Of a DNA stretch of 64,000 nt, positions 7,086 through 38,881 are shown piece after piece; positions within the stretch are counted from its first letter, which is position 1; every line of letters starts with the position of its first letter. The translations under genes were made by a program, and so were the position numbers. The notes below the pieces were generated by a model. That model was not told the origin of the DNA and made no database searches. It saw only the letters and a program-made list of their open reading frames with translations. The DNA comes from Gammaproteobacteria bacterium (GTDB lineage Bacteria > Pseudomonadota > Gammaproteobacteria > Ga0077536). The stretch covers positions 27,250 to 91,249 of the forward strand of contig JAURHQ010000001.1 of assembly GCA_030833185.1 (NCBI GenBank), given 5' to 3'.

Positions 7086-8146
7086 CGCGTTCGCGCCAGC
7101 ATCAAGCCCGCGGCCAGCAACATGATCAACGTGGGCGCGCCGGCCGAGAACATCGGCATCACCTCGTAGACCACGCCCAAATGGCCAGCGGCCTGATTCA
7201 GCAAGTGAAAGGCCAGCCCGATCATGGCACCGACCAGCACCCGCTGCCCAACCGAGACCGAGCGGTCCGCCCGCAGCACCATCGGCACCGCCAGCACCAC
7301 CATCGCGACCAGCGCTAGCGGATAACTCAGCTTGCGCCACAGCGCATGCTCGTAGCGCTGGGCATCGCCGGCGTTTGCACTGAGGAAACGGATGTAGCGC
7401 ATCAGGCTGATCACGCCCAATCGGTCCGGATTGGTCGCCACCATCGCCAACAGGTCCGGCTTGATGGTTGAGTCCCAGTCCGCTTCCTCCAGGTGGCGCG
7501 CGCGCATGCCTTCGTCGTCCAGTTCGGTCCGGGCGATGTTCTGCAGCACCCAGCCTTCGCCTTCGTAATGTGCAGACTCCGCGTAGGTGCTCGACTGCAG
7601 GCGGTTGAGATCGTCGAACTCATAAATGAACACGTCGCGCAGCCGGTCGCCGGGCAGAATCTGCCGGATATTGACGTAGCTGCGGCCATCACGCGCCCAG
7701 AAACCGGTTTTTGACCGCGAGACGGCGCCGCTGTTGAGCGCGCTGCTGCGCAGATCTTCTGCGCGCTGCAGCCCCGGCGCCGCCAGCAGCTCACCGCAGA
7801 GTACCGCCAGCACAACCATCAGCAGGGCGGCCTTGAGCACCGCGCCGACCAGCCGTTCTTTCGAGACCCCGGCGGCCCGCACCACGGTGATTTCCCCGTT
7901 GCGCATCAAGGTGCCGAAGCCAATCAAACCGCCGATCAGCGCGGCCATCGGAAACAGCTGATAGGTCAAGGTGGGCACCGACAGCACCACGAAGGCGCCG
8001 GCTTTCCACAGGGTATAGGTCCCGCGCCCGACGTCTTCAAGCTGATCGATAAAAGCGAAAAAAGTGAAGATGGCCACCAGCACCGCGAGCACCGTGAAGG
8101 TGGCAGTGAGAATTGTCCAGCCGATGTAGCGATCGAGGATTTTCAT
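7082..8146 (-). CDS. lptG: LPS export ABC transporter permease LptG.
   Basis: N-terminus MKILDRYIGWTILT...FAFIDQLEDVG and LFPMAALIGGLIGFGTLMRNGEITVVRAAGVS closely match LptG rather than LptF. It is divergent from pepA. Confidence 0.85.
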   Translation of the reverse strand: MKILDRYIGWTILTATFTVLAVLVAIFTFFAFIDQLEDVGRGTYTLWKAGAFVVLSVPTLTYQLFPMAALIGGLIGFGTLMRNGEITVVRAAGVSKERLVGAVLKAALLMVVLAVLCGELLAAPGLQRAEDLRSSALNSGAVSRSKTGFWARDGRSYVNIRQILPGDRLRDVFIYEFDDLNRLQSSTYAESAHYEGEGWVLQNIARTELDDEGMRARHLEEADWDSTIKPDLLAMVATNPDRLGVISLMRYIRFLSANAGDAQRYEHALWRKLSYPLALVAMVVLAVPMVLRADRSVSVGQRVLVGAMIGLAFHLLNQAAGHLGVVYEVMPMFSAGAPTLIMLLAAGLMLARTR

Positions 8147-8276
8147 GATGGCGCCCGCACAGTATAGCCATGCTTTACGCCACTAAATCCGTCCGCATAC
8201 ACTGCCCCGCGCTGTGCGTGGCCGCCCCGGCCTCGATCCTTATCCCCGCAAGTCCTCATTTCCTCCGGAGCGATAC

Positions 8277-9770
8277 ATGGACATCTCCGTCAAACGCGGT
8301 CATCCGGCCGAACAGAAAACCGCCTGCCTGATCGTGGCCGTGTATGCCGGCAAGAAACTCAGTTCAGCCGGCGCCACGATCGACACCGCACTCGGCGGCA
8401 CGATCAGCAAACTCTGCAAGCGGGGCGACCTGACTGGCGCGGTGGGCGAGACGCTGATGCTGCACGAAGCGAACGGCACCGCCGCGGAACGCGTGCTTCT
8501 GATTGGCGGCGGTAAGGCCGAAGGCATCGAAGCCGCCGAATTCCAGTCGCTGGCCCAGAAGGCCGCCCGCACGGTCGTAGATGCGGGGTTACGCAATGCG
8601 GTGGCCTGTCTGGCCGATCTGGAAGTGAAAGAACGGGACGCCGGCTGGAAAGCCGCGCAAATCGCGCTGGCCTTCACCGGCGCCGCGTACCGTTTCGATC
8701 AAATGAAAAGCAAGCCGTCACGCAAGCCCGTGCTGGCCAAGCTGACGCTGCTGACCGAAGCGAGCCGGACCAGCGCTGCCGAGGCCGCCGTGACGCAGGC
8801 GCTGGGCATGGCGGAAGGGCTCGCGCTAACCCGCGATCTGGCCAATCTGCCCGGCAACCATTGCCCGCCGCGTCATCTGGCCGAGGCTGCCCGCGCGCTC
8901 GGCAAGGCGCACAAGAGCCTGAAAGTCACCGTCCTCGAGCGCGCCGAGATGCAGAAACTCGGCATGGGCTCGCTGCTGGCGGTGGCCCAGGGCAGCGCCG
9001 AGGCGCCCAAGCTCATCACGCTGGAATATCAGGGCGACGCCGCGAAATCGCGCCCGGTGGTCCTGGTGGGCAAAGGCGTCACTTTCGACTCCGGCGGCAT
9101 CTCCATCAAGCCGGGCCCCGGCATGGACGAAATGAAGTTCGACATGTGCGGCGCCGCCAGCGTGCTGGGCGTGATGAAAGCGGTGGCCACGCTGGGGCTC
9201 AAAATCAACGTGGTGGGCGTGATCCCGGCGGTGGAAAACATGCCGGACGGCAACGCCATCAAGCCCGGCGACGTGGTTACCAGCATGTCGGGTCAGACTA
9301 TCGAAATTCTCAATACCGACGCCGAAGGCCGGCTCATCCTGTGCGACGCGCTCAGCTATGCCGCGCGCTACGAGCCGGATGTCGTGATTGATATCGCCAC
9401 GCTGACCGGCGCCTGCGTGATCGCGCTGGGCAGCCACGCCAGCGGGCTCTTGAGCAATCACGACCCGCTGGCCGAGGAACTGCTCCGCGCCGGCCAGCGC
9501 AGCGGCGACCGCGCCTGGCGTCTGCCGCTGTGGGAGGACTACCAGAAGCAGCTCGACAGCAACTTCGCCGACATGGCGAACGTCGGTGGCCGCGAAGCCG
9601 GCACCATCACCGCCGCCTGCTTTCTCGCCCGCTTCACCCGCAGCTACCGCTGGGCGCATCTCGACATCGCCGGCACTGCCTGGCACTCGGGCAAGGCCAA
9701 AGGCGCCAGCGGCCGACCGGTACCGCTGTTGATGGAGTTCATCCTCAACCGGGCGCGGCGCGGAAGCTGA
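8277..9770 (+). CDS. pepA: Leucyl aminopeptidase PepA.
   Basis: Product has M17 peptidase motifs (VGKGVTFDSGGISIKP, NTDAEGRL). ATG 8277 is preceded by GGAG. Confidence 0.9.
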   Translation: MDISVKRGHPAEQKTACLIVAVYAGKKLSSAGATIDTALGGTISKLCKRGDLTGAVGETLMLHEANGTAAERVLLIGGGKAEGIEAAEFQSLAQKAARTVVDAGLRNAVACLADLEVKERDAGWKAAQIALAFTGAAYRFDQMKSKPSRKPVLAKLTLLTEASRTSAAEAAVTQALGMAEGLALTRDLANLPGNHCPPRHLAEAARALGKAHKSLKVTVLERAEMQKLGMGSLLAVAQGSAEAPKLITLEYQGDAAKSRPVVLVGKGVTFDSGGISIKPGPGMDEMKFDMCGAASVLGVMKAVATLGLKINVVGVIPAVENMPDGNAIKPGDVVTSMSGQTIEILNTDAEGRLILCDALSYAARYEPDVVIDIATLTGACVIALGSHASGLLSNHDPLAEELLRAGQRSGDRAWRLPLWEDYQKQLDSNFADMANVGGREAGTITAACFLARFTRSYRWAHLDIAGTAWHSGKAKGASGRPVPLLMEFILNRARRGS

Positions 9771-30591: not shown

Positions 30592-31494
30592 TCAAATATG
30601 GATCTTGATCCCGGCCGCCTGCAGGGCAGCCCGGACCTTGGGCTCGGCAGCCGCCGACAGCCAGGTCAAAGGCAGGCGGATGCCCGCGTCGATCAGGCCC
30701 ATGGCGTGCACGCCCCATTTGACCGGGATGGGATTGGACTCGCAAAAGAGGTCGCGGTGCAGCGCCGCCAAGGGGACATCCAGCGCAGCGGCACGCGCGG
30801 CGTCGCCGGCGGCGGCCGCGGCACACATCTCATGCATGGCGCGCGGCGCCACATTGGCCGTGACCGAAATTACCCCGTGACCGCCGGCCAGGATGAACTC
30901 CCGTGCGGTGGCGTCATCGCCGCTCAACAGCACAAAGTTGTCCACGCAGTGTTCGCGCAGGGCGGCGACCCGGGCGACTTCGCCGGTCGCTTCCTTGACC
31001 CCGATGATATTGGGCACCCGCGACAGGCGGGCAATGGTCGCCGGCTGCATATCGCAGGCGGTGCGGCCGGGCACGTTATACAGAATCTGCGGAATGGCCA
31101 CCGCCTCGGCGACCGCCTTGAAGTGCAGAAACAGGCCTTCTTGCGTCGGCTTGTTGTAATAAGGCGTGACCAGCAGGCAGGCGTCGGCGCCCACTTCCTT
31201 CGCGTGGCGGGTGAGTTCGATGGCTTCGGTCGTGGAATTGGCGCCGGTGCCGGCGATGACCGGGACCCGACCGCGGACGATCTCGACGGTGCGCCGGATG
31301 GCTTCGCAATGCTCGGCCTCGTTCAGCGTGGCCGATTCCCCGGTGGTACCGACCGCGACAATGCCGTCGGTGCCTTCCGCGATGTGGAATTCGATCAGGT
31401 TCGCCAGTTGGTCCCAGGCCAGCGGGGCGTCGGCTGCAACTCCACCCCGCATCGGGGTGACGATCGCAACGATGCTGCCGTGAAATTCGCTCAT
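30592..31494 (-). CDS. dapA: 4-hydroxy-tetrahydrodipicolinate synthase.
   Basis: ATG 31494 gives [15 protein letters not shown]. DapA family motifs are present (GTTGES, catalytic-Lys region IIGVKEATG). Confidence 0.9.
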
Positions 31495-31665
31495 GCCGGA
31501 CCCTTCCAAAACGGTCGTGCATGGTAGCTTCACCCCTGCATCTACATCAAGCCAATGAGCCGGCTGGCAATTTAGGCCTTGATCGACGCAGCTTGCGGCG
31601 CCTTGCAGTGAACATGCACAATGCGGGCGTCCATGAGATCAAGTAGCCGGCCCTCCTCCGAACCC

Positions 31666-32193
31666 ATGCAGAACCACATCGCGGTCGCCGTGATGGGTGC
31701 TAATCGGCATGGGCTGCTGGAGGCCTTCGCCAAAGCCGTGAAGGACTGCGGTTGCAGCATCGGCGACAGCCGGATGACGGTCCTCGGCGACCGATTCACC
31801 CTGATGCTCATGCTCTCCGGCAGCTGGGACGCCATCGCCAAAATCGAAAGCATGTTGCCGCGGCTCGAGAACCAGCTGCAGGTCAAGGCGCTGGCCCAGC
31901 GCACCGAACCCCGCCGCCGTCAGGGCGACCTGATGCCCTACGCGATAGAAGTGGTGTCGGTCGACCATCCGGGCATCGTCCACGAAATCACCCAGTTCTT
32001 TGCCCAGCGCGACATTGGCGTGGAAGACATGTACTCCGGCAGCTATGCCGCCGCGCACACCGCAACCCCGATGTTCTCGCTGCACATGACCATCAGCGTG
32101 CCGACCAACCTCTCGATTGCGGGCCTACGCGGGGAATTCATGGACTTCTGCGACCATCTGAACCTTGACGCCATCATGGAGCCGGTCAAGTAA
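31666..32193 (+). CDS. gcvR: Glycine cleavage system transcriptional repressor GcvR (tandem ACT domains).
   Basis: ATG 31666 gives MQNHIAVAVMGANRHGLL. It is divergent from dapA as in E. coli. Confidence 0.8.
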   Translation: MQNHIAVAVMGANRHGLLEAFAKAVKDCGCSIGDSRMTVLGDRFTLMLMLSGSWDAIAKIESMLPRLENQLQVKALAQRTEPRRRQGDLMPYAIEVVSVDHPGIVHEITQFFAQRDIGVEDMYSGSYAAAHTATPMFSLHMTISVPTNLSIAGLRGEFMDFCDHLNLDAIMEPVK

Positions 32194-32244
32194 GCGTCCG
32201 ACATACCGTGCTCTCCTAAGTCCTGACCGCGCTGGAGCAAACCG

Positions 32245-33672
32245 ATGTCTGGTCCCGGGAAAAAGCACAAGAAAAAGTCCGCGCAGCGACTTTTCGTCCT
32301 CGACACCAACGTGCTCCTGCACGATCCCTCCTGCCTGTTCCGATTCGCGGAACACGACCTGTTCATTCCGATGATGGTGCTGGAGGAACTCGACGCCGCC
32401 AAAAAAGGCGTCTCCGAAGTGGCTCGCAATGCCCGTCAGGTCAGCCGCACGCTTGACGATCTCATCGGCCCGGCGGACCGCGAGGCGATCGAAGCCGGTC
32501 TCGACCTGCCCTCCCCGATCAACACCACCGGCGCCCACCCCGCCAGCGGCAAGCTCTTTCTGCAAACCAGCCCGCTGACCAACGCGATGCCTGCCGGCCT
32601 GCCCGGCAACACCCCGGACAACAGCATCCTCGGCACCGCGCTTGCCCTCCGCGCCGCGCAGCCGAAGCGGGACGTCACGCTGGTGTCCAAAGACATCAAC
32701 CTGCGTATCAAGGCGCGGGTGGTCGGCGTTACGGCAGAGGACTACTACAACGACAAGGTGCTGGACGACATCAATCTGCTCTACACCGGCACCCGCGAAC
32801 TGCCGCCCGGCTTCTGGGCCGCGCAGGGCAAGGGGCTGGAATGCTGGCAGGCCGACGCCCGCACCTGGTACGCGGTGCCCGCCGCCAGCTACGAACATTT
32901 CTATCCCAACGAATTCGTCTACGGCCCGACCGACACCGATCTGGAACTGATTGCCCGCCGGGTGGAGCGCGAGCGGGTGGTGTTTGAACGGGCCCGCGAC
33001 TTCCGCAACCCGCGCAACGCCGTGTGGGGCATGGTGGCGCGCAACCGCGAGCAGAGTTTCGCGCTCAACCTGCTGATGGATCCGGACATCGACTTCGTAA
33101 GCCTGCTGGGCGCGGCCGGCACCGGCAAAACCCTGCTCGCGCTGGCGGCAGGCCTCGCCCAGTCGCTGGACGACAAGCGCTATCGCGAAATCATCGTCAC
33201 CCGCGAAACCGTACCGCTGGGCGAAGACATCGGCTTCCTGCCGGGCACCGAAGAAGAAAAGATGACGCCCTGGATGGGCGCGCTGATGGACAATCTGGAA
33301 GCGCTGGCGGAAACGCAGGAAGGCGGCGAGTGGGGCCGCGCGGCCACCGCCGACCTGCTCGCGAAGCGGGTAAAGGTGCGCTCCATGAACTTCATGCGCG
33401 GCCGCACCTTCTTCAACCGCTATATCGTGATCGACGAGGCGCAGAACCTGACCGCCAAGCAAATGCGCACGCTCATCACGCGCGCCGGGCCGGGGTCAAA
33501 AATTGTCTGCTGCGGCAATATTGCCCAGATCGACACGCCTTACTTAAGCGAAACCACTTCCGGGCTCACCTACATCGTCGACCGCTTCAAACATTGGGAA
33601 CACGCGGGACACATCACGCTGATGCGCGGCGAGCGTTCCCGACTGGCCGATTTCGCCGTCCAGAATCTTTAG
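32245..33672 (+). CDS. PhoH-like ATPase with N-terminal PIN domain (YlaK family).
   Basis: N-terminal PIN region (VLDTNVLLHDP...MMVLEELD) and C-terminal PhoH P-loop GAAGTGKT. Confidence 0.85.
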   Translation: MSGPGKKHKKKSAQRLFVLDTNVLLHDPSCLFRFAEHDLFIPMMVLEELDAAKKGVSEVARNARQVSRTLDDLIGPADREAIEAGLDLPSPINTTGAHPASGKLFLQTSPLTNAMPAGLPGNTPDNSILGTALALRAAQPKRDVTLVSKDINLRIKARVVGVTAEDYYNDKVLDDINLLYTGTRELPPGFWAAQGKGLECWQADARTWYAVPAASYEHFYPNEFVYGPTDTDLELIARRVERERVVFERARDFRNPRNAVWGMVARNREQSFALNLLMDPDIDFVSLLGAAGTGKTLLALAAGLAQSLDDKRYREIIVTRETVPLGEDIGFLPGTEEEKMTPWMGALMDNLEALAETQEGGEWGRAATADLLAKRVKVRSMNFMRGRTFFNRYIVIDEAQNLTAKQMRTLITRAGPGSKIVCCGNIAQIDTPYLSETTSGLTYIVDRFKHWEHAGHITLMRGERSRLADFAVQNL

Positions 33673-33777
33673 GGCGAAAGCCCGATTTCTCCTGATCCCG
33701 CGCGGTGACAGCGAGGCAGGCTGTCAGGCTACCATCGGGCGCGTTACCCAACCGTCCGCAGCGCCCGGAGCAATGCC

Positions 33778-35289
33778 TTGACCTGTCACTTCCAACTCGC
33801 GCCGGGCGCCCGGGTGACCACGCTGCGCGCCGCGCTGCGTGAAATCGCCGGTAACAGCGACAGCACGCCGCAGCGTCTGGAACGACTGTACCTGGACAGC
33901 TTCGACCGGCGACTGGCCGCTGCCGGCTGGGTGATGGAAGCCGATCGCAGCGACGCCGGCAGCACGAATCTGCGGCTGCGGCCGTGCCGGGGAGAAAGTG
34001 ACGAACCCCTCCTCTGCGACCCGCCGCTGCCGCGCACGGCGGGCGACTGCTCGCGCCCGCGTCTGCGCGCGCGGCTCGAGCGCTTGCTGGAGGGTCGTGC
34101 GCTGCTGGTGGAATCCATCGGCATGCTGCGCATCGAAGCGTTTCCCTGTCTGGATGCGCACGGCAAGCTGGTCGCCATCCTCAGGCTGGAACAGCCGGCG
34201 GCGGCGAAGCGCGCGGCGGTGCTCCGCGTGCACGCGATTACCGGGTTTGAAGGGGCGACGCGACGGATCACAAGGCAGCTGCGCGCGAGCGGTCTGCTCC
34301 GGCCCTTGCGGGTAGATTGCGCCGTGCCGCTGGGCCTGAGCCTGCCCACCTACGCGGCCAAACCGGTGGTTCGCCTGCGCCCAGGCAACCGCGCCGCACG
34401 GGCACTGGCCCATCTGCTGCTCGCCTACACGGCAACGCTGCGCGCCAACGAACCCGGCATCCTCAATGACTGGGACAGCGAGTTTCTGCACGATTACCGG
34501 GTCGCCTTGCGCAGCATCCGGTCCTGGCTGGGCGAGCTTAAATCCTGCATCGAGCCGGTGGCCCGGCGCGAGGTCAAGGCAAGTCTGGCGCACCTCAACC
34601 GAATGACCGGCGCGTTGCGCGATCTGGACGTGCTCTGCGCGCGCCTGCCGGACTATGTGAGCGATAACGTCGGGGCTGCGGCTCACCGGCTCGCGGTCCG
34701 GGCCAAAGCCGCCCGCGCCGATGCCCGTGCGGACCTCGTCGACTACCTGCAGAGCGCGAGCTATGTCGCCGCCATGGCCCGCTGGTCGGACTTCCTGAGC
34801 GCACTGACCAAAGGTGAGCACGCCGGCCGCCGGGGCCGTGAGCGGGTGGATGGGGTGCTGGACCGCGCGCTGGCCCGACGGCGCGCCAGCATTCTTGCCT
34901 TCGACGCCGACAAAGCGCGGGAAGACGCCACGGTGATGCACGAGCTGCGCAAGGAATGCAAAAAGCTGCGCTACCTGCTGGAAGGATTTCAGTCCCTGTT
35001 TGAGCCCGCCGCCCGCGAGCGCGCGGTGCTGGAACTCAAAACCCTGCAGAGCGCGACCGGCGAAATTCAGGACCTGCACGTCCATCTTGGCTTGCTCACA
35101 CAACTGGCGCAGACCGTCCGGGATGGCGATGATGAGCCGGCGGCACTGGACGCCTTGCTGCAGCAACTCCGCGCGCGACTGCGGACGCTGGAACAAGCCC
35201 AGCTCGCGCGGGTGACCACCGCGCTGGCGCGCTTCGGCAGCCGGCGAGTGCAGCGGATTTTTGACCGATTGCAGGAGAAAGCGGCGTGA
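33778..35289 (+). CDS. CHAD domain protein with an N-terminal CYTH-like domain (YgiF-type architecture).
   Basis: C-terminal half has CHAD-type conserved His/Arg helices (LHDYRVALRSIRSWL, MHELRKECKKLRYLLE). N-terminal half resembles the CYTH beta-barrel of YgiF (RLYLDSFDRRL...LRLR) but lacks the ExExK motif. Its stop overlaps the next gene's start (GTGA). Confidence 0.7.
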   Translation: MTCHFQLAPGARVTTLRAALREIAGNSDSTPQRLERLYLDSFDRRLAAAGWVMEADRSDAGSTNLRLRPCRGESDEPLLCDPPLPRTAGDCSRPRLRARLERLLEGRALLVESIGMLRIEAFPCLDAHGKLVAILRLEQPAAAKRAAVLRVHAITGFEGATRRITRQLRASGLLRPLRVDCAVPLGLSLPTYAAKPVVRLRPGNRAARALAHLLLAYTATLRANEPGILNDWDSEFLHDYRVALRSIRSWLGELKSCIEPVARREVKASLAHLNRMTGALRDLDVLCARLPDYVSDNVGAAAHRLAVRAKAARADARADLVDYLQSASYVAAMARWSDFLSALTKGEHAGRRGRERVDGVLDRALARRRASILAFDADKAREDATVMHELRKECKKLRYLLEGFQSLFEPAARERAVLELKTLQSATGEIQDLHVHLGLLTQLAQTVRDGDDEPAALDALLQQLRARLRTLEQAQLARVTTALARFGSRRVQRIFDRLQEKAA

Positions 35290-36062
35290 AAGTATTCGCC
35301 ACGTACAACGTCAAGGGCGGGGTTGGCAAAACCGCCGCCACGGTCAATCTGAGCTATCTGGCCAGCCGCGCCGGCTATCGCTGCGTGGTCTGGGACCTCG
35401 ATCCACAGGGAGCGGCCGGCTTCTACTTCCGCATCGAACCGGAAACCACCACCGACCCGGCGGCGTTTCTGGAAAAAAAGCGCGGGCTCAAGGCCGCCGT
35501 CCGCGGCACCAATTACCCCGGACTCGACCTTATTCCGGCCGATCTGGGGCATCGCAACCTCGACATCGCGCTGGCCGAGTTTCGCAAGCCGGGCAGCCGG
35601 CTGGGCAAGATGCTGGACGTGCTGGCCGACGATTACGACCTCGCCTTCGTTGACTGCGCGCCGCATCTGTCGCTGGTCTCGGAAAACATTTTCGACATGG
35701 CCGACCACCTGCTGGTGCCGGTCATCCCCACCCCGCTGTCGGTCCGGGCCTACGCCCAGCTGCGGGAGTTCTGCGGCGCGCACGGCCTCGGCCGCGACAA
35801 GCTGCTGCCGTTCTTTTCGATGGTCGACCGCCGGCGCCAGCTGCATTGCGAGCTCATCACCAGCTTTGCCGCCGAGCACCCGGAAGTGCTGCGCAGCTTC
35901 ATTCCCTACACCAGCCAGGTCGAGAAAATGGGCGAGCAGCGGGCACCGGTCCAGACCTTCGCCCCCGGCAGCCCCGGCGCGCGCGCCTTTCAGGCGCTAT
36001 GGCGGGCCTTGTGCGCGCGGGTTGGGCTGGACGACGGTCTGCCGGCGGCGGATGAGGCCTGA
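35286..36062 (+). CDS. Orphan ParA/MinD family P-loop ATPase.
   Basis: Product has the deviant Walker A motif NVKGGVGKTAATVNLS. There is no parB or parS nearby. GTG start overlaps the CHAD stop. Confidence 0.85.
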   Translation: MKVFATYNVKGGVGKTAATVNLSYLASRAGYRCVVWDLDPQGAAGFYFRIEPETTTDPAAFLEKKRGLKAAVRGTNYPGLDLIPADLGHRNLDIALAEFRKPGSRLGKMLDVLADDYDLAFVDCAPHLSLVSENIFDMADHLLVPVIPTPLSVRAYAQLREFCGAHGLGRDKLLPFFSMVDRRRQLHCELITSFAAEHPEVLRSFIPYTSQVEKMGEQRAPVQTFAPGSPGARAFQALWRALCARVGLDDGLPAADEA

Positions 36063-37113
36063 TCCGGCCGAACTGGTCGCCGCGCTGAAGGGCTGGGGGC
36101 TTGAGCTCGGCTTTCAGCAAATTGGCGTGACCGGGCTCGAACTCGGCGCCGACGCGGGCCGGCTCAAGGACTGGTTGGCCCGGCAGTATCACGGCGAGAT
36201 GCACTGGCTCACCGCCCACGGCGAGAAACGCTACACGCCCGACGCGCTGGTGCCGGGCACGCTATCGGTCATTTGCGCACGCTGCGACTATCTGCCGGAA
36301 TCGATGGACGCGATGCAGGCCCAGCTCGAAAACCCGCGCGGCGCCTACATCTCGCGCTATGCGCTGGGCCGCGACTATCACAAGACCCTGCGCGGACGGC
36401 TGCGCACGCTGGCCCGCCGGCTGGAAGCGGCGATTGGCCCGTTCGGCCACCGCGTGTTCACCGACAGCGCGCCGGTGCTGGAAAAGCCACTGGCGCGCAA
36501 CGCCGGCCTCGGCTGGATTGGCAAACACACCAATCTCATCAACCGGCACGACGGCTCGTGGTTTTTTCTCGGGGAGATTTACACCGACCTCGCGCTGCCC
36601 GCGGACCCGCCGCAGACAGCCGACCATTGCGGCAGCTGCCAGCGCTGTATCGACATCTGCCCGACGGCGGCCATCGTTGCGCCCTACGTGCTGGATGCCC
36701 GACGCTGCATCAGCTACCTGACGATCGAGCTGAAAGGCGCGATCCCAAGCGAACTGCGGCCGCTGATCGGGAACCGGATCTACGGCTGCGACGACTGCCA
36801 GCTCTGCTGCCCCTGGAATCGCTACGCCAAACGCAGCGCCCTGCCCGATTTTGACCCCCGCCACGGGCTGGACCGCGCAAGCCTGCTCACGCTGTTCGCG
36901 TGGACCGCGAGCGAATTTGAGGCACGGACCGAAGGCTCGGCGATGCGTCGGGTGAGCTTTGAACAATGGCAACGGAATCTGGCCGTCGCGCTCGGCAATG
37001 CCCCGCCGGATGCCGCCATCATCAACGCCCTTGAGGCGCAGCGGCCCCAGGCGTCCCCCCTGGTGCAGGAACACATCGACTGGGCGCTGGCGCGGCTCCG
37101 CACCGCGGCCTGA
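36052..37113 (+). CDS. queG: tRNA epoxyqueuosine(34) reductase QueG.
   Basis: N-terminus MRPDPAELVAALKGWGLELGFQQIGVT matches E. coli QueG. Two 4Fe-4S ferredoxin motifs are present (CGSCQRCIDICP, CDDCQLCCP). Its start lies 11 nt inside the ParA-like gene. Confidence 0.9.
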   Translation: MRPDPAELVAALKGWGLELGFQQIGVTGLELGADAGRLKDWLARQYHGEMHWLTAHGEKRYTPDALVPGTLSVICARCDYLPESMDAMQAQLENPRGAYISRYALGRDYHKTLRGRLRTLARRLEAAIGPFGHRVFTDSAPVLEKPLARNAGLGWIGKHTNLINRHDGSWFFLGEIYTDLALPADPPQTADHCGSCQRCIDICPTAAIVAPYVLDARRCISYLTIELKGAIPSELRPLIGNRIYGCDDCQLCCPWNRYAKRSALPDFDPRHGLDRASLLTLFAWTASEFEARTEGSAMRRVSFEQWQRNLAVALGNAPPDAAIINALEAQRPQASPLVQEHIDWALARLRTAA

Positions 37114-37119
37114 AGCAGG

Positions 37120-38100
37120 CTAACCCGAGACTTTCGGCGGCTTGTCGGTCGGGGGCGGCGGCACCGGGAGTTTTTCGAGCCATCCGCGCAGGCGCTTCGC
37201 GAGTTCGGCTTCGGCGCCGCCAAACTGCCGCGTGGCGGCGTCGAGTTCCACCAGCCGATGGGGCGGGGCTTTCGCCTCGCGCGGGGCCGCGGCGCGGCGC
37301 GCGGCTTCCCGGCGCGCAACCGGATCAAGACTCGCCACAAACTCGATGCTCGGCACCTTGATCGCCGCGAGCTTGCCGGACCAGCGCCCGATGCTGGCGA
37401 AGGCGCGAATCTCGGCCGGCAGGCCGTCGGCGTAGCAGGCCAGCACGCGGGCGGCGTTGTCGTCCTGCGCCACCAGCGCGATCAGCGGCGGCGAAGTCGA
37501 TTGCAGCAGGGCCAGCGCCGCAGCCACCCGCGCGCAAAGCGGGTCGAGCGTCGGGGCGGCATCGGCTGGCGCGATAGCCGGCGGGCTGGTGGCATCGGTC
37601 GCTGGCGGTGTGACCGCGGCCGGCGCCGCCATCGCAGCCGCCAGTGGCACCTGCAACGCGAGCGTCTGCCACGCGCCGCGCGCCGGAATCTCGCGCAGCG
37701 CCCGGGTCACCGCCTGCTGATCGATAAAGGCCTTGGGGTCCGGCACGATCAGCAGCGCACCGCGCAGGGGCTGACCGTCGGCCGGACTGCGCCGGAACGC
37801 GAAAAAGCGCCCGTCGGGCGCGTTCAGCCAGACCAGTTCCTCGTCGCCCACCAGCGCCGGCAGCCGCGGCACAAGCTCCCCTTCGCGTCCGGGCAGCCCT
37901 TTGTCTTCTGGCACCGCCGTCGCGACCGGCGCCGCGGCCGCCGGATCCGCATCCGGCGTCACTGGCGCTGTGGCCTCGGCGGCGGGCGCGACCTCGGCCG
38001 GCGCGCTGTCGGGCGCCGTCGCCTTGGCAGCGGGCTCGGCCGCACGCGCCGGCAAGCTCACCGCCAGCAGACCGCAGAGGACAAGAATGAGTGCTTGCAT
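37120..38100 (-). CDS. Secreted hypothetical protein with Ala/Pro-rich linker; possibly DUF3530-like alpha/beta fold.
   Basis: ATG 38100 gives signal peptide MQALILVLCGLLAVSLPARAAEP. The + strand ORF 37258..38400 is Arg-rich antisense junk. Confidence 0.45.
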   Translation of the reverse strand: MQALILVLCGLLAVSLPARAAEPAAKATAPDSAPAEVAPAAEATAPVTPDADPAAAAPVATAVPEDKGLPGREGELVPRLPALVGDEELVWLNAPDGRFFAFRRSPADGQPLRGALLIVPDPKAFIDQQAVTRALREIPARGAWQTLALQVPLAAAMAAPAAVTPPATDATSPPAIAPADAAPTLDPLCARVAAALALLQSTSPPLIALVAQDDNAARVLACYADGLPAEIRAFASIGRWSGKLAAIKVPSIEFVASLDPVARREAARRAAAPREAKAPPHRLVELDAATRQFGGAEAELAKRLRGWLEKLPVPPPPTDKPPKVSG

Positions 38101-38203
38101 GCGCGGGCTATCGACCCGCCAGCGCGCTTCTGGAGCGCGCTGACCGGCGCGCGCGCTTTGGGGTACAGTGCGGCGCCTTTCTCTCATTACGGATCGAATC
38201 CCC

Positions 38204-38881
38204 ATGCAAGCCGCCGTCATTGCGCCGTCCATCCTTTCTGCCAATTTTGCGCGCCTCGGCGAAGAGGTCGACGCGGTGGTCGCCGCCGGCGCCGAGTTCA
38301 TCCACTTCGACGTGATGGACAACCACTACGTGCCCAATCTGACGATCGGGCCAATGGTCTGCGCGGCGCTGCGCAAGCACGGCGTGACGGCGACCATTGA
38401 CGTGCACCTGATGGTCGAACCCGTCGACCATCTGATCGGCGAGTTTGCCAAAGCCGGGGCGAGCTATATCACGTTTCATCCCGAAGCCAGCCGGCATATC
38501 GACCGCAGCCTGCAGCTGGTACGCGATCTGGGCTGCAAAGCGGGGCTGGTGTTCAATCCGGCGACGCCGTTGGACGCCATGCGTCACGTGATGGACAAGC
38601 TCGACATGGTGCTGTTGATGTCGGTCAACCCGGGCTTTGGCGGGCAGTCTTTTATTCCATCGGCGTTGCCGAAGCTGCGCGAGGCGCGCCAGCTGATTGA
38701 TGCCTCCGGCTTGCCGATTCGGCTGGAAATCGACGGCGGGGTCAAAGTCGACAATATCGGCGAAATTGCCGCCGCCGGGGCCGACACCTTCGTCGCCGGC
38801 TCGGCCATTTTCAACGGCGGGGATTACGCCACCACCATCGCCGCCATGCGCGCCGCGATCGCCAAGGGTCGTAGCGCGTGA
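38204..38881 (+). CDS. rpe: Ribulose-phosphate 3-epimerase.
   Basis: Product starts [22 protein letters not shown]. The rpe-gph arrangement is conserved. Confidence 0.9.

Follow-up and report, generated by a model that had tools for sequence, protein, structure and literature searches.

A widespread CHAD-ParA gene pair as a candidate module for positioning polyphosphate granules in bacteria

Introduction

What does a ParA-type ATPase do when its gene overlaps not a parB gene but the gene of a predicted polyphosphate (polyP)-binding protein? The question is raised by positions 33778-37113 of a 64,000-nucleotide stretch of DNA from a Gammaproteobacteria bacterium (assembly GCA_030833185.1, contig JAURHQ010000001.1; the whole stretch is referred to here as the window), an interval filled by three overlapping plus-strand genes that encode a protein with a CHAD domain, a ParA-like ATPase and the tRNA epoxyqueuosine reductase QueG. 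A first-pass annotation, made from the sequence alone, had seen in these genes a single operon and a candidate granule-positioning module, and all three open reading frames (ORFs) lie on the strand and at the coordinates that it gave them, with the GTGA junction between the first two genes and the 11-nt overlap of the third that it described (Table 1).

The positioning and inheritance of polyP granules is an open question in bacterial cell biology. A ParA-like mechanism was one of the three models for polyP granule partitioning set out by Henry and Crosson in 2013 (PMC3806658), and a 2025 review of organelle positioning attributes the spacing of polyP granules to AlgP and that of polyhydroxybutyrate (PHB) granules to PhaM, PhaF and PhaH, with the ATP dependence of these systems unknown (PMC13052382). 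The annotation had counted PHB granules among the established cargoes of ParA/MinD ATPases, a point that has to be corrected given the review's attribution of their spacing to these tethers. Outside Pseudomonas AlgP, the proteins that position polyP remain unidentified, and it is unknown whether positioning costs energy (PMC13052382, PMC13081873); a 2026 study describes the positioning mechanism as undefined, and as ParA-independent in Synechococcus elongatus (PMC13081873), and a 2024 review of the ParA/MinD family names no polyphosphate cargo (PMC11407121). In the literature that we searched, a parA gene beside a CHAD gene is mentioned only in passing, in Acidithiobacillus, where a conserved folD-ppk-parA-CYTH/CHAD cluster was read in terms of cAMP signaling or copper resistance (PMC6416229, PMC10892726), and an earlier mention in older papers is possible. 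Our analysis indicates that the CHAD-ParA pair is very probably a real and widespread module, with translational coupling and a link to polyphosphate metabolism, and we lean, with more reserve, towards the reading that it is a ParA-type system for positioning or segregating polyP granules in which the CHAD protein would act as the cargo adaptor.

Results

The case for a functional pair begins with its conservation. A profile of the ATPase was compared with one genome per species (185,579 species), which matched at least 594 relatives; the best 80 loci were kept and annotated with our own hidden Markov models (HMMs), and L-numbers are used throughout as labels of the loci examined. Among the 74 scan loci with enough upstream sequence to be assessed, a CHAD gene lies directly upstream of the ParA gene on the same strand in 59 (80%), of which 57 also show the N-terminal domain of the window protein, and outside the window's own clade the pair is found in 52 of 62 assessable loci. 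In 47 of these 59 pairs the ParA start runs into the CHAD stop, with 4 or 1 nt in common, so the overlap in the window, recurring as it does in other species, is not a local accident; a wider set of 65 paired loci holds 44 overlaps of 4 nt and 8 more of 1 nt. The genetic coupling of the CHAD and ParA genes is strongly supported, and the GTGA junction of the window reads as a signature of translational coupling. Adjacency across genomes, which the first-pass annotation had made a check on its own proposal, thus holds, and it is accompanied by the recurrent linkage to polyP genes described below.

The scan loci belong to the Gamma-, Beta- and Alphaproteobacteria, Desulfuromonadota and Actinomycetota, with paired loci in Sedimenticola, Thiodiazotropha, Methylococcales (including Methylomonas lenta and Methylotuvimicrobium buryatense 5G), Thiotrichales, Chromatiaceae, Nitrosomonas, Rhodospirillales, Trichloromonas and several Actinomycetota; at an Acidobacteriota locus (L062) the CHAD gene is found in the same cluster, 5 kb downstream. 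Chlorobaculum (Chlorobiota), uncultured Gammaproteobacteria and three Paracoccus species joined the set when the search started from CHAD. The Paracoccus pairs sit on chromids and were found by searching a plasmid collection with the CHAD domain of Chlorobium tepidum (CtCHAD; 9 records matched), and RefSeq names their products 'CHAD domain-containing protein' and 'AAA family ATPase'. The ATPases of Paracoccus marcusii and Chlorobaculum are 41% and 46% identical, respectively, to that of the window. Culturable or tractable organisms that possess the pair include Paracoccus type strains, M. buryatense 5G, Nitrosomonas marina and Sedimenticola selenatireducens.

Adjacency of this kind could in principle be chance synteny of functionally unlinked genes, as start/stop overlaps are common in compact high-GC genomes and the queG overlap in the window is likewise tight, yet that link is not conserved. 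The pair, however, is kept over several phyla at the frequencies given above, most often with overlapping codons, and its two members co-evolve while their other neighbors vary: the pairwise identity matrices of CHAD and ParA correlate across 60 pairs (r=0.85, Mantel p=0.001), with ParA the slower-evolving of the two (median identity 55% vs 33% for CHAD). Chance is on these grounds a very unlikely explanation. As in McdAB systems, the ParA gene is coupled genetically to a predicted cargo-binding partner. No conserved third gene accompanies the pair, and carboxysome families are not among the top 25 neighbor families of the loci.

The tie to polyphosphate metabolism comes from the genes that surround the pair in other genomes. 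A ppk1 gene lies no more than 8 kb away at L023, L042, L043, L062 and L077, and a two-domain ppk2 adjoins the pair at L022, L023 and L042. The gene order at the Chlorobaculum locus (L089) is ppk1-265aa-CHAD-ParA, and at L091/92 it is phoB-phoR-mgtC-CHAD-ParA-His_Phos_1-ppk1-ppx. Immediately upstream of CHAD-ParA in a Methylococcaceae metagenome-assembled genome (MAG) there is a gene for a H+-pyrophosphatase (L084, 4219-6333), an enzyme whose membrane form is a marker of acidocalcisome-like polyP organelles. Moreover, CtCHAD, which was crystallized with polyP, represents part of a 522-aa protein that shares the two-domain architecture of the window protein, and a ParA orthologue comes next after the gene for its 98%-identical homologue in a Chlorobaculum genome.

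The CHAD protein of the window (503 aa) matches Pfam CHAD (PF05235) over aa 214-440 with E=2.5e-42. Its AlphaFold2 (AF2) model, built from 104 homologues, has a predicted local distance difference test score (pLDDT) of 94.7 and a predicted template modeling score (pTM) of 0.92, and consists of a beta-rich domain (aa 1-176) and a helical domain (aa 206-498). Crystallography and mutagenesis by Lorenzo-Orts et al. (PMC6537752) place polyP binding by CtCHAD at H253, R256, R260, R296, R418 and Y419; all six mutationally validated residues are kept in the window CHAD protein and in at least 59 of 60 ParA-linked homologues (Table 1). From the biochemistry of CtCHAD (PMC6537752) we infer that the window protein binds polyP as well.

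The identity of the beta-rich N-terminal domain is less straightforward. The first-pass annotation had described a YgiF-like CYTH+CHAD protein that has lost the catalytic ExExK motif. At the level of fold this stands, as the predicted structure shows the eight-stranded tunnel of the CYTH/triphosphate-tunnel (TTM) fold, and so does the loss of the motif, which is absent from all aligned family members (the window protein begins MTCHFQL). CYTH membership by sequence homology, in contrast, was rejected: Pfam CYTH (PF01928) gives no match over aa 1-213, and hhalign comparison of the domain with canonical CYTH proteins returns a probability of 0.16%, which amounts to no signal. The CYTH-like call is drawn from the predicted structure only, and a role for the domain as a non-catalytic binder is plausible. 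Canonical CYTH proteins encoded near the pair in other genomes do carry the motif, as EIERKF. Their genes, often followed by a NUDIX gene, lie directly downstream of the pair at L062, at L093/94 and in Paracoccus (Table 1), an arrangement that gives the impression of a separate protein standing in for a degenerate fused N-terminal domain as the catalytic tunnel enzyme.

The YgiF-like architecture could also be taken to mean that the CYTH-CHAD protein is a polyP-regulated triphosphatase or a class IV adenylate cyclase, as proposed for the Acidithiobacillus 'ACAci', with ParA as an unrelated or regulatory neighbor, and this is how the Acidithiobacillus folD-ppk-parA-CYTH/CHAD cluster is read in PMC6416229. 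The missing ExExK motif in every family member examined and the failure of both sequence comparisons argue against such an enzyme, as do the canonical CYTH enzymes encoded separately beside the pair in several genomes and the CHAD-only proteins that are still coupled to ParA at L002 and L004. We consider an enzymatic role of this kind quite improbable.

The product of the second gene is, by its sequence and predicted structure, a Soj/McdA-like member of the ParA/MinD (deviant Walker A) family with intact catalytic residues, including the KGGVGKT motif pointed out in the first-pass annotation. HMM searches bear out that annotation's CHAD and ParA assignments, the ATPase matching Pfam AAA_31 (E=3.4e-27) and CbiA (E=1e-11); no NCBIfam equivalog, the partition equivalog included, reaches its cut-off for this protein. 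Residues K10, K15, T16, D37, D39 and D123 are invariant among 60 CHAD-linked ParA orthologues. When compared with the PDB, the family profile best matches the ParA-ATP structure 8ray (E=3.6e-31), along with Soj structures, and the AF2 model (pLDDT 88.5) gives query-normalized template modeling (TM) scores in Foldseek of 0.82-0.86 to Soj, 8ray and HpSoj and of 0.79 to McdA. The ATPase has no N-terminal extension, no MinD-like C-terminal membrane helix and no CxxC motif. A partner parB was said to be missing, and indeed there is no ParB-family gene among the flanking genes of the window or among the 25 most frequent neighbor families on each side of about 60 loci (parS sites were not searched for); the flanking genes in the window are PIN-PhoH and QueG. 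The residues through which Soj binds DNA are R189 and R218 (PMC3778016). The equivalent of R189 in the window ATPase, R183, is conserved in 59 of 60 ParAs inside an RR(K/R) cluster, and R219 is likewise conserved in the CHAD-linked family.

The third gene of the overlapping set requires a different interpretation. Gene order in the window's clade is dapA-gcvR-phoH2-[CHAD]-ParA-queG...DUF3530-rpe, and queG follows ParA only in this syntenic clade (L001-L014, L016, L021, L022 and L048), with a ppk2 inserted between the two genes at L022; outside the clade, queG is next to ParA in none of 66 scan loci. Because the ParA-queG adjacency is confined to the window clade, queG is best regarded as a lineage-specific neighbor and not as the module component that it had been taken for, and the overlap of the three genes probably results in its co-transcription in the window lineage. 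The possibility that the ATPase delivers Fe-S clusters to QueG in the manner of Mrp/NBP35 was considered and rejected, the match to PF10609 being weak and limited to the Walker A region and the CxxC motif being absent.

The features of the locus are collected in Table 1. GGAG Shine-Dalgarno boxes stand 7-8 nt 5' of both the CHAD and the ParA start, and homologue N-termini that begin at the same residue back both start choices. In an alignment of the intergenic region upstream of the CHAD gene with those of the relatives L005, L006 and L008, the Shine-Dalgarno box and the start codon form the sole conserved block, and no conserved regulatory element was found beyond it. A promoter scan of 31400-38500 returned zero sigma-70-like sites, and terminator-like sites were at background level. 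The module is flanked upstream by bamC, dapA, a gcvR-like ACT gene and a PIN-PhoH gene (phoH2), and downstream by a convergent DUF3530 gene, rpe and gph. A 490-aa antisense ORF over the CHAD gene (33724-35196, minus strand) was set aside as without homology support; the plus-strand CHAD gene is preferred because GC content at third codon positions and all homologues favor it, and long antisense shadow ORFs are typical of high-GC DNA.

Table 1. Features of the CHAD-ParA-queG interval of the window, and canonical CYTH genes beside the pair at other loci (positions in the last row are those of the loci named).
Feature	Position	Strand	Basis
Gene for 503-aa CYTH/TTM-like + CHAD protein	33778..35289	+	TTG 33778, TGA 35287-35289; Pfam CHAD; homologues ~500-530 aa; AF2 model
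Gene for 258-aa Soj/McdA-like ParA-type ATPase	35286..36062	+	GTG 35286, TGA 36060-36062
queG (tRNA epoxyqueuosine reductase) gene	36052..37113	+	ATG 36052, stop 37111-37113; TIGR00276 E=4.5e-141
GGAG Shine-Dalgarno box, 7 nt 5' of CHAD TTG	33767..33770	+	Sequence; conserved with start in upstream alignment
GTGA, CHAD TGA stop overlapped by ParA GTG start	35286..35289	+	Sequence
Overlap of queG start and ParA 3' end, 11 nt	36052..36062	+	Sequence
N-terminal beta-rich domain, predicted CYTH/TTM fold, without ExExK	33778..34305 (aa 1-176)	+	Predicted structure
CHAD domain, two four-helix bundles, predicted polyP-binding	34360..35271 (aa 195-498)	+	Pfam + predicted structure
Codons H238, R241, R245 (CtCHAD H253, R256, R260)	34489..34512	+	Alignment; conserved in 59-60/60 ParA-linked CHAD proteins
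Codon R281 (CtCHAD R296)	34618..34620	+	Alignment; conserved in 60/60
Codons R398, Y399 (CtCHAD R418, Y419)	34969..34974	+	Alignment; conserved in 59/60 and 60/60
Deviant Walker A K10-G-G-V-G-K15-T16, signature lysine K10	35313..35333 (aa 10-16)	+	Sequence
Basic triplet R182-R183-R184; R183 aligns with B. subtilis Soj R189	35829..35837	+	Alignment to 1wcv, 8ray
Canonical CYTH genes downstream of CHAD-ParA	L093/L094 6276-6749; L098 6230-6724 and 7214-7711; L099 5624-6118; L100 5564-6055; L062 8782-9243		

Further observations were made in the DNA around the pair. Within the 105 nt that separate phoH2 from the CHAD start there is a perfect 7-bp inverted repeat, TGACAGC-N7-GCTGTCA (33706-33726), which includes CTGTCA, similar to a Pho-box half-site, and is not conserved in L005, L006 and L008. 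Directly after the phoH2 stop there is a small hairpin, GGGC-GAAA-GCCC, followed by GATTTC (33672-33689), which possibly acts as a weak terminator that sets phoH2 apart from the CHAD operon, though it was not called by the terminator scan. At other loci, a gene for a SixA-like histidine phosphatase (His_Phos_1, ~170 aa) directly follows the ATPase gene in two Nitrosomonas genomes (L046, 8769-9290; L074, 8756-9265) and in the gammaproteobacterial phoBR-CHAD-ParA-x-ppk1-ppx locus (L091, 6348-6860). A gene for an HU-like DNA-binding protein (L072, 8917-9249) and an HHH_5 gene (L053, 8948-9391) follow the ATPase gene at one locus each and are possible links to the nucleoid. The aminopeptidase N gene pepN is a conserved upstream neighbor of CHAD-ParA in Sedimenticolaceae and Thiodiazotropha (L017, L019, L025, L026, L028, L032-L034, L038, L040 and L065), and pepN is also listed as adjoining the Acidithiobacillus CHAD cluster (PMC10892726). 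In the Methylobacter-type loci without CHAD (L054, L056, L070 and L083), the ParA gene, at ~8001-8770 (5750-6499 in L070), is preceded by genes for a 1205-aa hybrid histidine kinase and a 619-aa HDOD-REC-GGDEF protein and followed by one for glycogen phosphorylase (834-835 aa), an arrangement that could mean that members of this ATPase family serve another cargo or are regulated differently at these loci.

Discussion

The mechanism that we propose for the CHAD-ParA pair is modeled on McdAB and ParABS. In the first step, the CHAD domain would bind polyP through its basic central pore and coat the granules. ATP-sandwich dimers of the ParA-like ATPase would attach to a matrix of polyanionic character, the nucleoid being the likeliest, and the granule-bound CHAD protein, through a putative interaction with the ATPase, would trigger ATP hydrolysis and release. 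The resulting zones of ParA depletion would keep the granules spaced on the nucleoid and ensure that they are inherited. The degenerate CYTH/TTM-like domain would serve as a non-canonical ligand- or partner-binding domain, and queG would be co-transcribed in the window lineage only, through local synteny. Under such a scheme, ParA/MinD cargo positioning would extend to a new cargo with a new class of adaptor, in the form of an ATP-driven polyP system that has so far not been described.

Several observations weigh against this proposal, and they concern the breadth of the coupling, the matrix of the ATPase and the window lineage itself. About 20% of ParA orthologues, such as those of Methylobacter- and Crenothrix-type loci, have no adjacent CHAD gene. 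Conversely, in a CHAD-anchored sample of 11 contexts ParA is adjacent in 6 and not in 5, and CHAD proteins of the same architecture occur without an adjacent ParA in Mameliella, Thiodictyon, a Chloroflexi MAG and several Chlorobium, the ParA-less Chlorobium gene order being pstCAB-phoU-x-CHAD-ppk1. A comparison of 62 linked with 5 unlinked CHAD proteins yielded no decisive motif specific to the ParA-linked ones, with R45, K130 and Y/F157 as weak candidates. The 64-kb window holds no ppk or ppx gene, and no second ParA gene.

With regard to the matrix, the position equivalent to Soj R218, which we assigned by our own count from Soj sequences and alignments, is Q211 in the window and mostly D or E across the CHAD-linked ParA family. 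Because this position is acidic or neutral, nucleoid binding by the ATPase is plausible but uncertain. The main rival explanation takes up this point and holds that the pair is a polyP-associated ATPase module and not a nucleoid ratchet, in which the ParA dimer would bind polyP or the CHAD coat and would set granule nucleation, size, fusion or PPK recruitment. The lack of a basic residue at one of the two Soj DNA-binding arginine positions, while the RR(K/R) cluster and R219 are conserved, speaks for such a role, as do the tight adjoining of the module to ppk1, ppk2 and ppx in other genomes and the oligomerization of CtCHAD on long polyP (PMC6537752). The nearest structural and sequence relatives of the ATPase, on the other hand, are the nucleoid-binding proteins Soj, ParA and McdA, and the arginine equivalent to Soj R189 is kept. 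To our knowledge no ParA family member uses polyP as its matrix, which also counts against this rival, and we regard it as possible but doubtful. A more speculative idea, and in our judgment a rather unlikely one, is that this ParA subfamily reads polyP as a DNA-mimicking polyanion through RR(K/R) and R219, and that the TTM-like domain senses a phosphorylated ligand and gates stimulation of the ATPase. If this were true, granule number, size and position would be tuned to the phosphate and energy state of the cell, and the ATPase would represent an ATP-driven regulator of an inorganic condensate rather than one more nucleoid ratchet.

The remaining objections come from the window's own clade, where only 7 of the 12 scan loci that could be assessed have CHAD. 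At L001, L007 and L011 phoH2 abuts ParA and the gene is cleanly missing; at L016, L021 and L048, where an oppositely oriented gene for an AI-2E transporter is found alongside, it is absent, replaced or displaced; and at L002 and L004 it is represented by a CHAD-only protein of 308-327 aa; ParA-queG is kept at all of these loci. Furthermore, CHAD identity within the clade is 48-50% where that of ParA is 85-88%, i.e. CHAD diverges far faster, and the window CHAD protein has lost four peripheral residues of the basic patch. These patterns would fit an ATPase that in the window lineage has a CHAD-independent job, with QueG or another cargo, the CHAD gene being a decaying remnant. Yet the CHAD protein of the window is full length, is modeled with the high pLDDT given above and keeps all six core polyP residues as well as the GTGA junction. 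In addition, queG follows ParA nowhere outside the window clade, the ATPase is without the CxxC of the Mrp/NBP35-type Fe-S carriers that could serve QueG, and the genomes lacking CHAD at this locus may encode it elsewhere. A CHAD-independent function is on balance unlikely, and granule positioning by the pair remains the reading that we prefer, with the acknowledgment that the CHAD partner in the window lineage shows signs of relaxed constraint. For this reason Paracoccus, Chlorobaculum, Methylotuvimicrobium and Sedimenticola are cleaner test organisms than the window lineage.

Bacteria that accumulate polyP are relevant to phosphorus removal, stress survival and virulence. The CHAD-ParA pair represents a concrete, testable candidate for the positioning and inheritance of polyP granules, and it would give the 'phosin' CHAD proteins a function that goes further than binding polyP.

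Among known systems, McdA/McdB is one of the close parallels. There, too, a small Soj-like ParA without ParB or parS is encoded beside the gene for a cargo-bound partner, sometimes together with genes for cargo synthesis, and McdA structures (6non and 6nop) are among the top structural matches of the window ATPase, at the query-normalized TM score of 0.79. The differences lie in the cargo, which for the CHAD-linked pair is proposed to be the polyP granule and not the carboxysome, on a putative matrix; in the partner, which is a folded 500-aa TTM-like + CHAD protein and not McdB; and in the signature lysine K10, which CHAD-linked ParAs possess. The ParA(Soj)-ParB-parS system shares the best sequence and fold matches (8ray, 1wcv/2bek and 6iub), the deviant Walker A motif and the R189-equivalent arginine. 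It differs in its ParB, whose gene was not found beside the window ATPase or among the frequent neighbor families (parS was not searched for), and in the Soj motif 'IPRNVR', which in CHAD-linked ParAs reads 'IPY(A/T)S(D/E/Q)VE'; the R218-equivalent position, too, is non-basic in them.

On the side of the CHAD protein, E. coli YgiF is similar in architecture, and we know of no ParA partner for it. YgiF has the catalytic ExExK motif and a 'short' CHAD domain without a central pore (PMC6537752), whereas the window protein is without ExExK and has a 'long', predicted pore-forming CHAD domain. In the case of CtCHAD (Chlorobium tepidum Q8KE09; PDB 3e0s, 6qv7 and 6qva) and of phosins such as PptA, the isolated CHAD domain alone has been studied; term searches of the CtCHAD paper (PMC6537752) did not turn up the N-terminal domain or the ParA neighbor. 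The Acidithiobacillus 'ACAci' cluster likewise brings together ppk1, parA and a CYTH-CHAD gene in a conserved arrangement (PMC6416229, PMC10892726). There, mention of parA is confined to a figure legend and a single sentence, and the residues of the CYTH active site are said to be conserved, unlike those of the window family. Finally, AlgP, which acts on polyP in P. aeruginosa, and PhaM, PhaF and PhaH, which act on PHB, share the outcome proposed here, namely that storage granules are evenly spaced on the nucleoid and inherited (PMC9239181, PMC13052382). Those proteins are single DNA-binding tethers of unknown ATP dependence, whereas the conserved partner of the CHAD protein is an ATPase.

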